DNA from: an uncultured Mycoplasmatota bacterium
GTDB taxonomy: Bacteria > Bacillota_I > Bacilli_A > RF39 > UBA660
NCBI GenBank assembly: GCA_947571135.1
Contig: CANOWY010000002.1
Span: forward strand, 5,569 to 69,568
Length of the DNA stretch: 64,000 nt
Reading direction: 5' to 3'
The notes beneath the pieces were generated by a model. The model saw only the letters and a program-made list of their open reading frames with translations. It made no database searches and was not told where the DNA came from. Below are positions 44,006 through 51,364 of this stretch, in pieces. Both the position numbers and the translations under genes were made by a program. Within the stretch, counting starts at the first letter, position 1, and every line of letters starts with the position of its first letter.

Positions 44006-44731
44006 ATGCGTTATCTAATTCGTTTTGGTTATGATGGAAGTCATTTTTATGGTTTTCAAAGATTAAAAAATAAAGTAAGTGTGCAAAAGACTTTAGAAGA
44101 TGCTCTTACAATTATTAATAAGAAATTAGTAGAAATAAAAGGGGCTGGAAGAACAGATATTGGGGTTCATGCGAATTGCCAATGTGCTCATTTTGCTTTG
44201 GATATGAATATTCCAGTAGATAGATTAAAAACAGCACTGAATTCCATCGTACATCCTTATATTCATATTGTAGAATGTAGAAAAGTAAGTGATGATTTTC
44301 ATGCGAGATTTTCAGTTAAAAGAAAGAAATACGTTTATAAGATTTGGTGTGGTGCGTATGATCCTAAAAAGTATGATTATTATTTAATGTATGATAAAAA
44401 ACTTGATGTGGATAAGTTAAAAGAATGTGCCAGTGTATTGATTGGAAAACATGATTTTCATAACTTTGTTTCAGGGAGTAGAGATAATTATGATATGGAA
44501 ATAGAGGATATTGAAATTGTAGAAAATGGAGAAGAAGTAGATATTGTATTTACAGGGAAAAGTTTTTATCGTTATATGGTTCGTAATTTAGTTGGTGCTA
44601 TGTTAGACTATCATGAAGGTAAATGTGATATACTATTGTTGCAGAAAATGTTAAATAATAAAGATTTTGATTATCAATTGTCTTGTGCTTCTGCAAAGGG
44701 TTTATATTTGGAAGGTGTTTATTATGGATGA
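44006..44731 (+). CDS. truA: tRNA pseudouridine(38-40) synthase TruA
   Basis: 241 aa with the catalytic Asp motif GAGRTDIGVHA. Confidence 0.9.
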   Translation: MRYLIRFGYDGSHFYGFQRLKNKVSVQKTLEDALTIINKKLVEIKGAGRTDIGVHANCQCAHFALDMNIPVDRLKTALNSIVHPYIHIVECRKVSDDFHARFSVKRKKYVYKIWCGAYDPKKYDYYLMYDKKLDVDKLKECASVLIGKHDFHNFVSGSRDNYDMEIEDIEIVENGEEVDIVFTGKSFYRYMVRNLVGAMLDYHEGKCDILLLQKMLNNKDFDYQLSCASAKGLYLEGVYYG

Positions 44732-45899
44732 TGAAAAATTAATTGTTGATGAACAATATAGTAATTATGCACTGGAAATTTTTTTTCTAATTAATTATTG
44801 GGTTTGTCAAAATGGCATAATTTTGTCTAAAGAAGACTATGAAAATATTTTTGAACATTTACATACTAATCCAAGTTTTGATTCGAATTTTTTTCATACT
44901 AGTAGGGAAGTACAACTGTATTGTTTAAAGTATTCTCTTTTAGGAGAAGGTAATGCTGAACTTGTAAAAAAAATTTTAGAAAAAAGATTTGATAATGTAG
45001 ATATTATACTAAATAAATATACTAAGTGTAGCCATAAGCAAACTTATCAATATTTGCTATCAAAATATATGGATAATGAAAATCGAATAATACAAATTTT
45101 GAATTTTAAAGATTATAGAATGATGGTTTTATGTTTAAATATTGTTTTTTATTTTGATTTTTCAGAAGATTATGTAAGTTCGAAGGTAGAAACGGAATAT
45201 TTAAGATTATTGGAATCTATTCCTGTTACTCTCGTCAAAGAGGTAAAAGAACTTTTACAACAAAATCGTTTTGATGAATTTTTACTTTTATTACAAGATG
45301 TAGAGCCTATTAAAGAAGTGTTAATAACTTCGGAGGAAACTTTAACTACATATGCTCTTCCATGGGAGAATACAATAAGGACTTTTATAGAAAGAAGAAC
45401 AATTGGAACGCGTTTTTTTAATCAAATTGTAGAGGAGAGGGGTATTCCTGATAATTCAAAAAAATTGAATGATTGGATGAATTTTGATTTAAATGAAAGA
45501 TCAGAAGAATTTTTAGAAATATATAATAATGATTTTACTTTTAAAAATAAATGCTTAGATTTTTATGTACAATTTAGAGAGTTGTATAATTTATTATGCG
45601 AATTTATTAAAAGAGACTATGAAATGTACTATGTAAAAAAGTATTTAGACGATGGTTTTGAAACGGGTGAAGAAAAGGCACAGGGGGATAAACATTATGA
45701 TATAGTAAATATTCTAAAAAAAATGATATATATGTTATGGAATTGTTGGGAGTATACTAAAGTTTTTTCAAAAGAAGATTTTTATATGATAATAAATATT
45801 GTAAAACTTGCTAAGTCTGAGGGAATTCGCTATGCAAAAAATATATATTTAGAAGAAGAATATCAAAAAATATGTAGAAACTATACAAATTCACGATAA
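44724..45899 (+). CDS. Hypothetical protein (about 390 aa) inserted between truA and rplM
   Basis: The ATG overlaps the truA stop (ATGGATGA). No domain was recognised. A terminator hairpin (CACGATAAATTCGTG plus T-run, 45889-45912) follows it. Confidence 0.45.
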   Translation: MDDEKLIVDEQYSNYALEIFFLINYWVCQNGIILSKEDYENIFEHLHTNPSFDSNFFHTSREVQLYCLKYSLLGEGNAELVKKILEKRFDNVDIILNKYTKCSHKQTYQYLLSKYMDNENRIIQILNFKDYRMMVLCLNIVFYFDFSEDYVSSKVETEYLRLLESIPVTLVKEVKELLQQNRFDEFLLLLQDVEPIKEVLITSEETLTTYALPWENTIRTFIERRTIGTRFFNQIVEERGIPDNSKKLNDWMNFDLNERSEEFLEIYNNDFTFKNKCLDFYVQFRELYNLLCEFIKRDYEMYYVKKYLDDGFETGEEKAQGDKHYDIVNILKKMIYMLWNCWEYTKVFSKEDFYMIINIVKLAKSEGIRYAKNIYLEEEYQKICRNYTNSR

Positions 45900-45915
45900 A
45901 TTCGTGTTTTTTGTT

Positions 45916-45944
45916 TGACTTTTCTTTGTTTGTTGCATATAATT
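45916..45944 (+). promoter_or_regulatory. Promoter TTGACT-N17-TATAAT for rplM-rpsI
   Basis: -35 at 45916-45921; -10 at 45939-45944. Confidence 0.5.
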
Positions 45945-46027
45945 TTAACTGGTACATTTTATTTGTTTTGAAGCCAAATACCCTGGGAAAGTAAATGGTG
46001 GATGAACTAATGAAAGGAAAGTATGCA

Positions 46028-46459
46028 ATGAAAACATTCATGCAAAAAAAAGAAAATATTGAACGTAAGTGGTATGTAATCGACGCTGAAGGTAAAAATT
46101 TAGGTCGTATTGCTACAAAAGCAGCAACGGTTTTAAGAGGCAAACATAAAGTTACTTATACTCCTCATGTTGATTGTGGAGATTATGTAATTATTGTGAA
46201 TGCTTCTAAAGTAAACTTAACTGGTAACAAATTAAACGATAAGATGTATTACAATCATAGTGGATATACTGGAGGACTTAGAGAACGTAATGCTAAAACT
46301 ATGATTCAAGATTATCCTGAAGAAATGGTAGAAAGAGCAGTAAAAGGAATGCTTCCTCATAATAGACTTGGACGCCAAATGGGCAAAAAGTTATTTGTTT
46401 ATGCAGGTAGTGATCATAAACATATGGCTCAAAATCCTACTGAAATGAAAGTTGATTAG
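46028..46459 (+). CDS. rplM: 50S ribosomal protein L13
   Basis: [30 protein letters not shown]... matches the canonical L13 N-terminus. The start is re-assigned to ATG 46028. Confidence 0.93.
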
Positions 46460-46468
46460 GAGGGTATT

Positions 46469-46891
46469 ATGGCTACAAGTAAACAAAGTTGGACAGCAAC
46501 TGGACGTAGAAAACGTTCTAGTGCACAAGTAACACTTACAGGTGGAACTGGAATTATTACCATTAATGGTGTAGATGTTAATGACTATATGCCTTACGCT
46601 ACACTTGTAATGGATTTAAAACAACCTTTGACTATGACCAATAACGAAAATAAATTCGATATTACAGTTAATGTTAAAGGTGGAGGTTTCTCTGGTCAAA
46701 CTGGAGCAATCCGTTTAGGTATTACAAGAGCACTTTTAAAATATGATGCTAATTCTGATCAGTCTCGTGATGATTCTTATCGTAAAATTTTAAAAACTGC
46801 TGGATTTGTTACAAGAGATCCAAGAGTGAAAGAACGTAAGAAACCAGGACTTAAAAAAGCACGTAGAGCACCACAATTTAGTAAACGTTAG
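46469..46891 (+). CDS. rpsI: 30S ribosomal protein S9
   Basis: 140 aa with GRRKRSSAQV and the C-terminal ...RAPQFSKR. Confidence 0.93.
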   Translation: MATSKQSWTATGRRKRSSAQVTLTGGTGIITINGVDVNDYMPYATLVMDLKQPLTMTNNENKFDITVNVKGGGFSGQTGAIRLGITRALLKYDANSDQSRDDSYRKILKTAGFVTRDPRVKERKKPGLKKARRAPQFSKR

Positions 46892-47036
46892 AAATATTTT
46901 CATAAAGCCTTACCGTTTTGGTGGGGTTTTTGTTTTTTATTAATTAGAATAAAAGATAAGTTTACTTTTAAGTGAATTATCAATTTATGATATAATCATA
47001 TTAAATTTTTATTAAAAAATTGAAAGGGGAAATGTT

Positions 47037-47498
47037 ATGAATTTGGAAGACGAAGAATTACAACTTTTGGCAGAAGAACAGATGAATAGATTAATAACAG
47101 AAATTCAAAAATATTTAAATAAGTTCTATGATAAAACGTATATCTTAGATAGTAGAGTAAAAAGTCCAGATAAATTAAAAATGAAACAAACGTTAATTTC
47201 TAGTAAAAAGGGATACCCAATTAAATTGACTGATCTTCCAGACATTATTGGGTTAAGAATATCAACAGAAACTGAACAAGATGTAGAAAAAATGAGTGAA
47301 CTAATTAAAGGATTATCACCTAGTAAAGTGATGGATTATTTTAATACGCCTAGAGAAAATGGGTTTAAAGCATTTTTATATTATTTTGAGAATATAGGAA
47401 TAAATGTAGAGATTCAGATTATGACAGTACAAATGATGGAATGGACAAATGCCACACATAAGGAACATGATACTGAAAAATATGGTCAAATAAGATAA
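47037..47498 (+). CDS. Minimal RelA/SpoT-domain nucleotidyltransferase (small alarmone synthetase-like, 153 aa)
   Basis: Motif-by-motif alignment to RelQ: SRVKSPDKLKMK vs GRVKPVASILEK; LPDIIGLRIS vs MQDIAGLRIM (catalytic Asp); DYFNTPRENGFKAFLYYF vs DYIAEHKESGYRSYHLVV; NVEIQIMTVQMMEWTNATHKEHDTEKY vs LVEIQIRTLAMNFWATIEHSLNYKY (catalytic Glu). It lacks the basic R/K and His residues that bind the pyrophosphate-acceptor nucleotide in RelQ. Confidence 0.65.
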   Translation: MNLEDEELQLLAEEQMNRLITEIQKYLNKFYDKTYILDSRVKSPDKLKMKQTLISSKKGYPIKLTDLPDIIGLRISTETEQDVEKMSELIKGLSPSKVMDYFNTPRENGFKAFLYYFENIGINVEIQIMTVQMMEWTNATHKEHDTEKYGQIR

Positions 47499-47608
47499 GA
47501 TTTTGATTTATCATTATGCTACAATATAAAAAAATACTTATAAAGAAAATTTGAATTATTTTATAGTTAAAAATGTTATATTAATTTTAGTTAGTTAGTG
47601 AGGTTATT

Positions 47609-48679
47609 ATGCAAATTAGTTATAATGTAAGAAAAATTGATTATCGTAATAGATTACGAAATTTAGACGTACAAGCACAAAGTAATTTAAAAAGTGATAA
47701 ATTTTTTCCTGTGTTTTATATAGATGGAAAGGAAAAGATATTTAAACCACTTTCTAAAACAAAACCGTTATCTACACCATATTTTGCTTATAGTGAAGTA
47801 GTATGGTCAACTATTCTTAATCGTTTTTTTGATTCTTCTACTCCAGTTTATGAACTTGCTATTATTGAGCATATTGAAGATGATTTTGAAAGTAAATATC
47901 ATCATGGAGTTTTAGTGGATAATATAAGACAGAAAAACGAAGATTTAGTAAATTTATATGAATATTTTCGTGATTATCCAGAAGATGTATTTAATATTAA
48001 AGACTATATTAATTATGCATTAGAATTTTATGATTATAGAGGTTTATTTGAAACAAAGTTTATGAAGTCAAATCTGGTAGTAGCAGAAAGGTTTGTTTAT
48101 CAATTGTTGTTGTCTTATTTAAAATGTGATTTGAATTATCATTATGAAAATCCTTTGTTTAAAAGTGTAAATGGAAAGATTATAGATATTGCTCCTATGA
48201 TTGATCATGAGTTTTCAGGAATGTTTTTATTTATAGATGATTCTCTTCTTCATGATCTTTATTTTAGAAAATCAATTCGTTCTTTGTTTTCACATCATTT
48301 GATTGTCTCAAATTATCCTATCGATCAACAAAGATTTTTTAGTACGATTTCGCAGAATTTAGATGTTATTTCAAAGAAGTATCCTAATGTTTGTAAGTTT
48401 TTTTTGAGTAAGTTAAGAATATTTTTAAACCATTTAGAAGAAAACCCGATTTTTTTAGAAGATAATGGATATTTAGTTCCTTTTCATAGTTTTAATTATG
48501 AGATTGGAGAACAACTTTATAAAAAACATAATTTAGAAGAATCAGAAAGATTAAGAGTAGAAAAATCTTCAAAACAGTTTGTTTCTAATATACAGGAAGT
48601 ATCTAATATACTAAATAAAGAAATATATGTTTATGGAAACTGTTTAGAGAAAGAGATGACAAGAAAATTACAAAAATAG
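47609..48679 (+). CDS. Hypothetical protein with protein-kinase-like motifs, a paralogue of the 4567-5448 protein
   Basis: 356 aa. ...KCDLNYHYEN...KIIDIAPMIDHEF parallels DRNSAN...YIDLAPLYDF of the other paralogue. The N-terminal KEKIFKPLSK...PYFAYSEVVWSTIL parallels KIKNKKIGLASK / PFYLLDELMGSFL. Confidence 0.4.
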   Translation: MQISYNVRKIDYRNRLRNLDVQAQSNLKSDKFFPVFYIDGKEKIFKPLSKTKPLSTPYFAYSEVVWSTILNRFFDSSTPVYELAIIEHIEDDFESKYHHGVLVDNIRQKNEDLVNLYEYFRDYPEDVFNIKDYINYALEFYDYRGLFETKFMKSNLVVAERFVYQLLLSYLKCDLNYHYENPLFKSVNGKIIDIAPMIDHEFSGMFLFIDDSLLHDLYFRKSIRSLFSHHLIVSNYPIDQQRFFSTISQNLDVISKKYPNVCKFFLSKLRIFLNHLEENPIFLEDNGYLVPFHSFNYEIGEQLYKKHNLEESERLRVEKSSKQFVSNIQEVSNILNKEIYVYGNCLEKEMTRKLQK

Positions 48680-48721
48680 AACTGCTTTTCTTATTTCTAT
48701 TTTATTTGCATATAGTTTACT

Positions 48722-49381
48722 ATGAAGAAATATTTTATGAAAGTTAGTATTTTATTTGTTATTGCAATATTATGTTTTGCAAATCATATTGTTTTAGCCA
48801 GTCTTCCTTTGACAGGAAAGTTAATTGTAATTGATGTTGGACATGGTGGTGCGGATCCGGGTACTATGTATGGAGATATCTATGAAAAAGATATTAATCT
48901 TGCCATATCTTTGGATTTGGAGAGTGAACTTTCTAATCTTGGAGCCAGTGTGATTTTAATTCGTAATGAAGATTATGATTTATCAAAACCAAATGCTTCT
49001 TGGAGAAAGAAAAGTGACTTTGACAATCGAATAAAATTGATAAATGGGAGTGGAGCAGACTATTATTTTTCGATTCATTTGAATTATTTAGAGGATACAA
49101 GTTATTATGGGCCGCAAGTTTTCTATAATACAAAGAATGAAAGAAATAAAATAATTGCAGAACAAATTCAAAGTGAATTGAATAAGGAAATTAAAACAGA
49201 TAGGGAAGTAAAATTAATTCCTAGTACTACTTACATGTATAAAGAATTAAATATTGAGGGAGTATTAATTGAATGTGGTTTTTTGTCAAATGCTCATGAG
49301 CGTAGTTTGTTAGTAACGGAAGAGTATCAAAAAAAACTTGCAAAAACAATTGCAAGTGCTATTGGAAATTTAAAATTCTAA
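48722..49381 (+). CDS. cwlD: N-acetylmuramoyl-L-alanine amidase (Amidase_3), CwlD-like germination-specific amidase
   Basis: KLIVIDVGHGGADPG...NGSGADYYFSIHLN is the Amidase_3 signature. It has an N-terminal signal/TM. The position after rpsI matches B. subtilis cwlD. Confidence 0.8.
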   Translation: MKKYFMKVSILFVIAILCFANHIVLASLPLTGKLIVIDVGHGGADPGTMYGDIYEKDINLAISLDLESELSNLGASVILIRNEDYDLSKPNASWRKKSDFDNRIKLINGSGADYYFSIHLNYLEDTSYYGPQVFYNTKNERNKIIAEQIQSELNKEIKTDREVKLIPSTTYMYKELNIEGVLIECGFLSNAHERSLLVTEEYQKKLAKTIASAIGNLKF

Positions 49382-50434: not shown

Positions 50435-51364
50435 ATGAATAAGATATTCAAAACTTTAGATGAGCAAATTTCTATTTTAGAAAGTAAAGGGATGATTATA
50501 GAGGATGTTTTGGCCGCTAAAGAAATTCTTTTGCGTGAAAATTATTTCTTTATTAGTGGATATCGTCTTTTATTTATGAAGTCGATGAATGATAAAACAT
50601 TTGTTCCGGGAGCAAGTTTTCGTGAACTGTATGGGGTGTTTAATTTTGATCGTCAAGTTCGAAATATTTTATTTAAAAATTTGCTTATTATTGAGAATAA
50701 TTTAAAGAGTATATTATCTTATCATTTATCTAAAACGTATGGAATTCGAGAGAATGATTATTTGAACCCTAATAATTTTAATAATCAACCAGAAAAGAAA
50801 AGGCAGATTAATGACTTAATTCAGAAAATGAAAAGACAAATTCGTTCAAATGCTGATAGTCATACGGCAACATCTCATTATAATACAAGGTACGGATATA
50901 TTCCTTTGTGGATAGCCGTTAAAGTTTTATCTTTTGGGATTGTGAGTGAACTTTATTTAATTTTAAAACCAAGTGATCAAAAATCTGTCGCAGAATTTTT
51001 TGATGTGGACGCAGATGATTTAGCCACTTATTTACCAGTCCTTGCTAATTATCGTAATTTGTGTGCACATGAAGAAATTTTGTTTGACCATCGTGTACAA
51101 AGGAAAATAGAGGATACTCGTTTTCATGAGTTATTGGAAATACCAAAGATAGGTGATGAATATATTTATGGTAAAGATGATTTATTTGCACTTATTATTA
51201 TTTTGAAACAAATGCTTCGTAAAGACGATTTTAATTCTTTAATTCGAGAATTAGATTATGAGATAAATAAGTTGAATGGAAAATTAGAAAGTATTAGTAT
51301 TGGAAAAGTTTTAGAAAAGATGGGATTTCCTATCAATTATATAGAAATAGAAGGGATGAATTAG
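50435..51364 (+). CDS. Abi_2 family (AbiD/AbiF-like) abortive-infection protein
   Basis: The N-terminus KTLDEQISILESKGMIIEDVLAAKEILLRENYFFISGYRLLF matches the Abi_2 (PF07751) signature. Length is 309 aa. Confidence 0.8.
   Translation: MNKIFKTLDEQISILESKGMIIEDVLAAKEILLRENYFFISGYRLLFMKSMNDKTFVPGASFRELYGVFNFDRQVRNILFKNLLIIENNLKSILSYHLSKTYGIRENDYLNPNNFNNQPEKKRQINDLIQKMKRQIRSNADSHTATSHYNTRYGYIPLWIAVKVLSFGIVSELYLILKPSDQKSVAEFFDVDADDLATYLPVLANYRNLCAHEEILFDHRVQRKIEDTRFHELLEIPKIGDEYIYGKDDLFALIIILKQMLRKDDFNSLIRELDYEINKLNGKLESISIGKVLEKMGFPINYIEIEGMN

Follow-up and report, generated by a model that had tools for sequence, protein, structure and literature searches.

Two genes in the same orientation lie between rpsI and cwlD in the 64,000-nucleotide stretch of DNA analysed here (the window), which comes from an uncultured Mycoplasmatota bacterium. 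The upstream flank is rpsI for ribosomal protein S9 (46469–46891, + strand; Pfam Ribosomal_S9, E=2.1e-45) and the downstream flank is a cwlD-like gene for an N-acetylmuramoyl-L-alanine amidase (48722–49381, + strand; Pfam Amidase_3, E=3.6e-43), both outside the feature under study. The two plus-strand ORFs between them were found as described in a first-pass annotation of this DNA. One (47037–47498, 153 aa) is a mini small-alarmone-synthetase-like gene with a SYNTH domain only, identified by PF04607, profile matches to PDB sequences, its structural model with Foldseek matches, invariant residues and dN/dS, and the other (47609–48679, 356 aa) encodes a CtkA/HipA-like atypical kinase-fold protein. 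They are separated by a gap of 110 bp. Both genes are real and under selection, the dN/dS value being 0.21 for synthetase and kinase-like gene alike against their orthologues in the relative L001.

A terminator-like hairpin with a T-run is located 3' of rpsI (46904–46930, + strand), where the terminator scan found a 12-pair stem followed by TGTTTTTTAT; this hairpin splits the ribosomal operon from the synthetase gene. The extended -10 element previously claimed for the synthetase (TGaTATAAT, 46988–46996, + strand) is present and, from reading of the sequence, is a candidate promoter for this gene. It is identical in the orthologous locus of L001, as is the block ATTTATGATATAAT around it, despite about 1 kb of extra DNA upstream there. 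The kinase-like gene has a candidate promoter of its own, a putative -10-like element (TGtTATATT, 47574–47582, + strand) that is conserved with the gene in L001, where the upstream ORF differs, and the orthologues in L117 and L119 have TATAAT-like elements of their own in the corresponding position. No terminator between the two genes was detected by the terminator scan, and therefore read-through co-transcription is possible. A riboswitch or other RNA element in the leaders was also considered and rejected, no credible Rfam match being found in 45700–49000.

The 153-aa ORF encodes a RelA/SpoT synthetase domain that is minimal and complete. The expected match to Pfam RelA_SpoT (PF04607) was obtained with E=2.7e-14 and 53.9 bits (gathering score 27) over profile positions 1–104 of 113, and the family profile matched the solved structures of RelP, RelQ and FaRel2 at 7e-10 to 3e-7. 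The AlphaFold model (pLDDT 82.8), in which the final helices span residues 131–139 and 141–149, has RelQ (5DEC; E=1.5e-6, TM 0.68) as its best Foldseek match. Profile alignments agree with the earlier estimate that the protein is about 60 aa shorter than RelP/RelQ: the N-terminus is shorter, the beta-hairpin is shorter by 8–10 aa, and the last 45–55 or so C-terminal residues are absent, the protein ending about 10 residues past the position aligned to residue ~160 of RelQ or ~172 of RelP. The C-terminal helix alpha5 is lacking and the N-terminus is shorter than that of RelQ; neither alpha5 nor the elements of the tetramer and allosteric cleft of RelQ/RelP were found in the alignment or the model. 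The score against the NCBIfam RelQ equivalog (GTPPhKinYjbM) is 22 bits with a cut-off of 320. The calculated pI is about 5.3, and the family as a whole is acidic (pI 4.9–6.2).

This family is small. Nearly all members are 141–170 aa long and come from MAGs of uncultured gut Bacilli, Erysipelotrichales and Tenericutes. About 19 representatives were found at E<=1e-30 among 1.84 billion proteins, again with lengths of 141–170 aa, and the intact ORFs read from MAG loci have 142–164 aa. One member (P0178) is tandemly duplicated.

The motifs D69-IIG-L-R74, G109-F-K-A-F-L and E125-IQIMT listed earlier are all present, and the motifs align to those of RelP/RelQ. Of the donor motif, which reads R40-V-K42-S-P-D-K46, the RxK part stands, but the literal RxKxxxS does not, because Lys replaces the Ser at +6 of RelP (RVKSFES in the aligned B. 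subtilis protein). When the ligands of S. aureus RelP (PMC5794853) are transferred via family-profile alignments, the donor/Mg site comprises R40, K42, K50, D69, G72, R74, E125 and H141, of which R40, K42 and K50 would contact the phosphates and adenine, D69 and E125 would bind Mg2+, R74 would stack on adenine and H141 would contact the ribose. R40, K42, K50, D69, G72, R74, H141 and the stretch E125–T130 (EIQIMT, nt 47409–47426), with Q127 likewise, are invariant in the 13-sequence family alignment and also across the complete members aligned from the larger set of MAGs. Judged from these alignments, all of the ATP- and Mg2+-binding residues of RelP/RelQ are kept in the mini-synthetase.

The acceptor (G) loop (P105–L114, nt 47349–47378) reads PRENGFKAFL, and its deviation from RelP/RelQ, with GFKAFL and EIQIMT as claimed in the first-pass annotation, is correct. 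The Tyr of GY(R/K)SxH was not found in the window protein, which has GFKAFL at this place; the family acceptor-loop pattern is G[FY][KQR]A[FYK][LNSI], with Ala and Leu/Asn in place of the Ser and His, and a basic residue equivalent to RelP R91 has been lost. All (p)ppGpp synthetases are described as sharing this Tyr (PMC5794853), and a Y-to-F exchange has served to cripple FaRel2 (PMC11782079). Given this divergent loop, the mini-synthetase might be weak, might be inactive or might use another acceptor. The 153-aa protein keeps an aromatic residue, F110, and most family members have Phe at the Tyr position. Since Tyr and Phe alternate at this position between clades, aromatic stacking is the conserved property. 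K111 is invariant and residue 106 (K/R) is basic in all but one aligned member; by alignment, these residues keep part of the acceptor phosphate patch.

The 356-aa protein had been called protein-kinase-like, which is right at the fold level, but the expected HipA_C profile match is absent. With confidence, it has a protein-kinase-like fold of the CtkA/HipA/PI4K-II type, with H. pylori CtkA and the HipA family as the closest matches; viral fold matches are weak (TM <= 0.40). No match was found to Pfam, NCBIfam, PADLOC or PHROG profiles. As for HipA_C (PF07804), the window protein is unmatched, and a weak likeness is seen in six of 50 family members (best E=0.03). Conserved residues include K46 (FKPLSK), E63 (YSEV), a catalytic-loop-like D174-x-N176-x-H178-x-E-N181 (nt 48128–48151) and I-D199-HEFS with D199 at nt 48203–48205; conservation of the Lys-Glu pair, the putatively Mg-binding Asn181 and Asp199 is shown across the family. 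The spacing H178...N181...D199 is identical to H311...N314...D332 of HipA. On this pattern, the catalytic Asp of HipA seems to be replaced by an invariant Asn (N176), and a conserved Asp lies two positions before it. This assignment draws on motif spacing only, because both an hhalign comparison of the family with an approximate HipA sequence and a profile search of PDB sequences came back empty, the latter with no kinase and no significant match to any solved kinase. HipA further differs in its N-terminal domain, which the 356-aa protein lacks, and in its HipB/HipS-type partner, which is missing in the window; no HTH or HipS-like gene flanks the kinase-like gene there, and one distant clade of the family has an upstream XRE-HTH gene. 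CtkA (JHP0940) is encoded on an ICE and secreted, whereas the 356-aa protein is neither; no signal peptide is evident in its sequence.

The kinase-like family, which is unannotated, is widespread in gut Firmicutes and comprises over 220 clusters at 90% identity. The first four contexts of this gene (synthetase, NUDIX, HD and Tag glycosylase) had hinted at a guild for nucleotide metabolism. This candidate was rejected, as the neighbours over 86 loci, read by eye, are unrelated (aroE, LysR, XRE, EamA, DUF1846-like, RsmJ-like methyltransferase, DegV and FtsW).

Whether the two genes form a pair was judged from 23 synthetase loci and from 86 kinase-like loci that were profile-scanned, with six more by tblastn. 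No neighbour family is conserved across the 23 synthetase loci beyond local synteny, and a RelA/SpoT ORF was found near none of the 86 kinase-like genes with the family synthetase profile at E<=1e-3. The adjacency is restricted to the window and the relative L001/L002, in which the synthetase is 76% identical and an 85-aa ORF stands between the two genes. Siblings sharing the synteny rpsI...cwlD-PLPC-Abi_2-htrA carry either the kinase-like gene without the synthetase (L117/L118 and L119/L120) or the synthetase without the kinase-like gene (L003/L004), and no remnant of the missing partner was found in these syntenic siblings even at E<=10. Both genes are presence/absence-polymorphic among close relatives, a pattern that also occurs with conflict or defence genes.

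The rplM-rpsI-cwlD block had been described as otherwise strictly conserved, which does not hold, as the interval differs in every relative examined. The proposal of horizontal acquisition fared better in one respect: the gene content of the interval is variable, and divergence is faster in both genes than in the flanking ones. Identity to L001 is 76% for the synthetase and 82% for the kinase-like protein, compared with 98–99.7% for rpsI, Abi_2 and HtrA; identity to L120 is 63% for the kinase-like protein versus 93% for cwlD. Hallmarks of insertion are, on the other hand, missing. No direct or inverted repeats of any note surround the pair, the window has no tRNA, and the GC content of the pair region (0.23–0.27) is not anomalous against that of the non-ribosomal flanks (0.24–0.30). 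A phage or plasmid origin was rejected: PHROG matches are at the domain level only, plasmid matches are distant (about 30% identity), and no close phage or plasmid relatives of the pair were found.

Collectively, the locus is probably best described as two separately promoted, functionally independent accessory genes that have become chance neighbours in a variable rpsI–cwlD interval of an uncultured low-GC gut Bacilli lineage. The first would be a minimal stand-alone RelA/SpoT synthetase that, most likely, moves the beta,gamma-pyrophosphate of ATP to the 3'-OH of a purine nucleotide, giving a (p)ppGpp- or (pp)pApp-type alarmone; because the ATP/Mg residues and F110 are kept, pyrophosphate transfer is most likely retained. 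It is predicted to be unregulated by pppGpp and to be controlled mainly at transcription from its own promoter, and the tandem duplication of P0178 gives a weak hint that it may act as a dimer. The second would be an atypical ATP-dependent phosphotransferase. RelQ and RelP (SAS1 and SAS2 of Firmicutes) are the nearest relatives of the first protein, having the same SYNTH fold and giving its top matches in structure (Foldseek E 1e-6 to 1e-4) and in sequence (profile E 7e-10 to 3e-7). They share with it the ATP/Mg ligands RxK...K, DxxGxR, EIQI-T and the His after W, and are likewise single-domain proteins without an adjacent antitoxin. They differ in their additional 60 or so residues with alpha5, in the longer N-terminus of RelQ, where residues of helix alpha1 form part of the allosteric pppGpp cleft, in the G-loop (G-Y-R/K-S-x-H versus G-F-K-A-F-L) and in EIQIRT versus EIQIMT, and the mini-synthetase falls short of the RelQ equivalog.

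An unlikely alternative to these independent accessory genes is that the mini-synthetase acts alone as a toxSAS-like effector and belongs to a small islet of defence type downstream of rpsI. It would then pyrophosphorylate the tRNA 3'-CCA end or synthesise (pp)pApp, and would be restrained by tight control of its transcription or by a neutraliser that is unlinked to it or not conserved. The toxSAS enzymes (FaRel, FaRel2, PhRel, PhRel2 and CapRel; also Tas1) have a similarly compact RelA/SpoT SYNTH core, a full-length profile alignment to FaRel2 was obtained at 1.7e-7, and the acceptor loop, which diverges from that of guanosine-specific enzymes, suggests a possible non-GTP acceptor. Close relatives also differ in whether they have the gene, which evolves more rapidly than the genes around it, and in a distant clade (36–37% identity) an XRE-HTH gene lies 7 nt upstream with a MobV-like relaxase nearby. 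On the other hand, toxSAS subfamilies are recognised via conserved bi- or tricistronic antitoxin partners (PMC7229694), whereas no antitoxin or immunity neighbour is conserved across the 23 mini-synthetase loci, including the clade of the window. The tRNA-targeting toxSAS use a cluster of basic residues, the equivalent surface of housekeeping SAS being negatively charged (10.1101/2021.04.30.441581), while the mini-synthetase is acidic; this pI and the lack of a conserved adjacent antitoxin argue against a tRNA-modifying toxSAS. The fold-search scores of CapRel and FaRel2 are also weaker than those of RelQ/RelP. An Abi_2 gene located 3 kb downstream could be counted in favour of a defence islet, but it is a near-invariant syntenic gene (dN/dS 0.006) and not islet cargo.

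It is equally doubtful that the mini-synthetase has little or no catalytic activity and is a pseudoenzyme or sensor which binds nucleotides but no longer binds the acceptor efficiently. The natural Phe at the G-loop Tyr in most members, as in impaired FaRel2, the loss of the Ser and His of GYxSxH and of the R91-equivalent basic residue, and a constraint relaxed relative to neighbouring genes are consistent with it. However, the ATP/Mg ligands and the catalytic Glu are all invariant across the family, the alternation of Tyr and Phe between clades keeps the stacking, and the basic residues at 111 and 106 are maintained as described above.

The first-pass annotation had regarded the two genes as one toxin-antitoxin or defence module acquired as a unit. 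In such a toxin-antitoxin or anti-phage module, for example, a toxic SAS would be neutralised or activated by phosphorylation by the kinase. In M. tuberculosis, the kinase antitoxin TakA phosphorylates the nucleotidyltransferase-fold toxin TglT (a type VII toxin-antitoxin system), which is to our knowledge the sole known precedent that can be named for a synthetase-kinase pairing. The likeness consists in an adjacent nucleotidyltransferase-fold enzyme and atypical kinase; no homology is claimed, and toxin-antitoxin partners are inherited together, while the pairing in the window is not conserved. In favour of the module, the genes are same-strand neighbours between which no terminator was detected, both evolve fast in a variable interval, and the pair is kept in the L001/L002 lineage. 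Against this, the pair occurs in that one narrow lineage only and is missing at the 21 further synthetase loci and the 86 further kinase-like loci, syntenic siblings hold one gene without the other, the gap between the genes takes an extra ORF in L001, and each gene has a promoter-like element. In PADLOC-DB v2, moreover, the kinase-like protein matches no system and the synthetase gives only a 26-bit domain-level match to the candidate PDC-S33. Because the pair does not co-occur elsewhere, the module fails the refutation test that its own proposal had named; it is already largely refuted by the co-occurrence data and is very improbable. Finally, the idea that decay of a relQ/relP gene left the 153-aa ORF as a truncated remnant, to which its shortness of some 60 aa might point, is rejected as virtually inconceivable, since the conserved length (141–170 aa in the strongest representatives and 142–164 aa in MAG-locus ORFs) and the dN/dS of 0.21 exclude a mere fragment, the N-terminal helix is conserved in a complete and confident model, 22 bits is remote from the 320-bit RelQ cut-off, and no extra RelQ-like coding sequence flanks the ORF.

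A new toxin-antitoxin or defence pairing, as had been proposed, is not supported. In practice, the locus is useful chiefly in that it points to two uncharacterised enzyme families, and the remaining interest lies in the mini-synthetase subfamily itself. It is conceivable, although we hold this only tentatively, that these mini-SAS of 141–170 aa constitute an RSH subfamily not described before and are the smallest RSH catalysts able to function unaided. Their remodelled loop (Phe for Tyr, loss of Ser and His, and Met for Arg in EIQIRT) would then steer pyrophosphate away from GDP/GTP to a different acceptor, for instance an adenosine nucleotide or another 3'-OH substrate, and they may serve uncultured gut Bacilli as stand-alone enzymes of signalling or conflict. 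An even weaker addition is that the synthetase, the kinase-like protein and a 153–157 aa 'Z' protein might belong to one loosely linked gene pool shuffling within variable loci. If active, the mini-synthetase would define the minimal RelA/SpoT catalytic unit, without oligomerisation or allosteric helices, and with its natural Tyr-to-Phe exchange it would shed light on what determines the acceptor specificity of RSH enzymes, as well as on the alarmone chemistry of uncultured gut Bacilli.

The 42–53 kb part of the window is AT-rich (GC about 0.22–0.36), with a GC skew above zero throughout. On the forward strand, truA (44006–44731) is followed by a 410-aa ORF (44667–45899) that overlaps the end of truA and matches no family, then by rplM (45995–46459), rpsI (46469–46891) and, directly after rpsI, a terminator-like hairpin (46904–46930). 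A 153-aa RelA/SpoT-type ORF (47037–47498) and, after a spacer of 110 bp, a 356-aa kinase-like ORF (47609–48679) come next, both where the first-pass annotation had placed them, and precede cwlD (Amidase_3; 48722–49381); all are on the plus strand. A Zn-phospholipase-C-like gene (PLPC) on the minus strand follows, and then an Abi_2/AbiD-like gene (50435–51364; Pfam 1e-41, PADLOC AbiD 2e-59) adjoining htrA.

The 153-aa protein reaches 53.9 bits against a Pfam RelA_SpoT cut-off of 27, and a profile built from 13 members of its family matches the solved structures of RelP (7e-10), RelQ and FaRel2 (1.7e-7). In a Foldseek search with its AlphaFold model (pLDDT 82.8), B. subtilis RelQ is closest (E=1.5e-6, TM 0.68), followed by RelP, an exported Streptomyces small alarmone synthetase (SAS) and long Rel enzymes, with CapRel and FaRel2 lower. 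The protein would work like RelQ and RelP, yet it departs from them in three features: its score against the RelQ equivalog is just 22 bits (cut-off 320), its G-loop motif differs and the C-terminal helix is missing. Its N-terminus and β-hairpin are shorter, and it lacks roughly the last 45–55 residues, where alignments place helix α5. In RelQ this helix links the G-loop with the allosteric pppGpp cleft (PMC5794853). The family is acidic (pI 4.9–6.2). A 350-aa member (P0178) is a tandem duplication whose first copy is degenerate and has lost its catalytic residues, which hints at a dimeric working unit. Many other matches of 400–460 aa, such as P0192, have a tandem pair of RelP/RelQ-like SYNTH domains.

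When residues are mapped by alignment onto the ligands of S. aureus RelP (PMC5794853), the donor site is intact, with R40, K42, K50, D69, R74, E125 and H141 all invariant in the family alignments. The first-pass annotation was right about D69/R74 and E125, but its RxKxxxS motif is not literal, position +6 being K46 in place of Ser. The acceptor loop (G-loop) reads PRENGFKAFL versus PKxxGYRSxH in RelP/RelQ, whose EIQIRT is here EIQIMT. All (p)ppGpp synthetases have been described as sharing the G-loop Tyr (PMC5794853), and Y128F is a substitution used to impair FaRel2 (PMC11782079). In this family some clades have Phe at the position and others Tyr, so aromatic stacking, not the hydroxyl, appears to be the conserved property. 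Because the G-loop is non-canonical, the acceptor may be a G nucleotide, an A nucleotide or something else. From the complete ATP/Mg site, the aromatic acceptor platform, the lack of regulatory helices, the acidic character and the lack of an antitoxin, the synthetase is taken to be an active stand-alone pyrophosphokinase, which would transfer pyrophosphate to a purine nucleotide via the intact ATP/Mg site and, with the regulatory helices absent, would be controlled mostly at the level of transcription. That it is a crippled pseudoenzyme, as the altered G-loop might suggest, is unlikely beside an invariant donor site.

A solitary toxSAS-like effector has an equally small chance of being correct. 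FaRel2 is among the matched structures; the conserved antitoxin neighbour that defines toxSAS enzymes is absent. Clustering of all neighbours in 23 synthetase contexts (the window, metagenome contigs and 19 loci of GTDB species representatives) gave no common family beyond local synteny. The neighbours, as read from sequence, include DHFR, a PLP enzyme, serS, ABC transporters, HD and XRE proteins (profile scan: XRE-HTH protein only). All 19 GTDB loci are from MAGs. The nearer ones carry labels such as uncultured Bacilli, Erysipelotrichales or Tenericutes; in the five with the weakest matches, the similarity falls inside a long protein, and these MAGs are Saccharibacteria, Dojkabacteria or unclassified. 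In a distant clade (36–37% identity; L028 9374–10345, L029 and L018 8468–9538), an XRE-type HTH gene ends 7 nt upstream and a MobV-like relaxase, read from sequence, lies less than 4 kb away in all three loci. This context is more toxin-antitoxin-like or mobile than that of the window's clade.

The 356-aa protein matched nothing in any profile library searched, nor any solved structure by sequence. HipA_C matches are weak and occur in 6 of 50 relatives. The earlier description of the protein as HipA-type appears to hold at the level of fold but not of HipA_C membership. The invariant residues are compatible with the active site of a kinase: K46 lies in a β-strand and E63 in the next helix, and two further stretches read D174-Q-N176-Y-H178-Y-E-N181 and I-D199-H-E-F-S. 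The spacing of H...N...D equals that of H311, N314 and D332 of E. coli HipA; on this register the catalytic Asp309 of HipA corresponds to the invariant Asn176, which, judging from motif spacing, would occupy the catalytic-Asp position. An hhalign comparison of the family with a HipA sequence found no alignment. The family, which exceeds 220 clusters at 90% identity, is new and unannotated within the CtkA/HipA/PI4K-II fold group. The most probable role of the protein is that of an ATP-dependent phosphotransferase whose catalytic loop is atypical and which would act separately from the synthetase. In one clade, about 37% identical to the window's protein, the gene for a 117-aa putative XRE-type HTH protein, read from sequence, lies on the same strand 17 nt upstream (L065 4070–4423 and 25 similar metagenome loci of the L068 type; the 26 contigs may come from only a few species), and the layout resembles hipB-hipA.

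The first-pass annotation had suggested that the two genes are one inserted toxin-antitoxin or defence module, a reading to be given up should the pair never co-occur elsewhere. By that standard it fails, and such a module is very improbable. The genes are adjacent in the window, and tblastn of the synthetase contexts with the 356-aa protein found the pair otherwise only in L001/L002, a relative with a 76%-identical synthetase. Conversely, a scan of 86 kinase-like loci with a synthetase profile detected no RelA/SpoT ORF to a distance of about 5 kb; the gene contexts of these loci are of roughly ten unrelated kinds. The strongest argument is provided by sibling genomes that share the backbone rplM-rpsI ... 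cwlD-PLPC-Abi_2-htrA. The interval reads rpsI-DUF3800-kinase-like-cation ATPase-cwlD in L117/L118, and no synthetase remnant is detectable in L117–L120 even at E<=10; in L003/L004 it reads rpsI-234 aa-synthetase-DHH-290 aa. L001 is collinear with the window but carries insertions exactly in the intergenic spaces on either side of the synthetase: upstream, about 1 kb containing two ORFs; downstream, before the kinase-like gene, about 460 bp containing an 85-aa ORF. The extended -10 of the synthetase (TGaTATAAT, 46988–46996, +) moves with its gene, unchanged between the window and L001. A separate conserved -10-like element (TGtTATATT, 47574–47582, +) belongs to the kinase-like gene, and orthologues behind other upstream genes have one as well. 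A family of 153–157 aa proteins without Pfam or PHROG match (L119 versus L030, 35% identity, E=1e-20) lies directly downstream of the kinase-like gene in L119 (7188–7646) and L120 (2112–2570) and of a distant mini-synthetase in L030 (2511–2981), which may be coincidence or reflect a common accessory gene pool.

Horizontal acquisition, also proposed earlier, survives in part. Close relatives clearly differ in which genes the rpsI-cwlD interval holds, and the two genes have diverged more quickly than those on either side; the pair shows no composition shift in the GC profile, and searches gave no tRNA in the window, no meaningful flanking repeats and no close relatives in phages or plasmids. Between the window and L001, amino acid identity is 76% for the synthetase and 82% for the kinase-like protein, compared with 91% for cwlD, 98% for rpsI, 98.6% for HtrA and 99.7% for Abi_2; dN/dS is 0.21 for both genes and 0.006–0.13 for their neighbours. 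The kinase-like protein is 63% identical in L120 (cwlD 93%) and in L119 (rpsI 100%), both lacking the synthetase. Compared with L117–L120 as a whole it is only 60–63% identical, though rpsI is 91–100% and cwlD 75–93%, a pattern suggestive of unusually rapid divergence or of allelic replacement at one fixed position on the chromosome. The truA-rplM gap is a second variable spot of the backbone: at the site of the 410-aa ORF, L001 and L119 have only a 105–124 aa ORF weakly similar to its C-terminus. The Abi_2/AbiD-like gene adjoins htrA in every relative examined (identity 99.7% in L001, 88.6% in L120, 83.8% in L117, 60.5% in L006; dN/dS 0.006 versus L001) and behaves like a conserved chromosomal gene, not mobile defence cargo.

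That the 153-aa ORF is a fragment of a decayed relQ, an outcome the first-pass annotation had allowed for, has next to no probability, since HMMER, run exhaustively against 1.84 billion representatives, gave about 19 relatives at E<=1e-30, nearly all of 141–170 aa, below which scores fall sharply to generic SAS and two-SYNTH proteins, and the dN/dS against the L001 orthologue is that of a maintained gene (0.21).

The element that made this locus exciting, a novel SAS-kinase pairing, is not supported by the data, and both genes are fairly described as accessory residents of an interval whose content varies. Judged against the features of RelQ/RelP and toxSAS, the synthetase is best called a new minimal SAS variant. 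The picture we consider probable, with some reserve, is that of an active stand-alone synthetase and a kinase-like phosphotransferase, which would be independent accessory genes of this interval.
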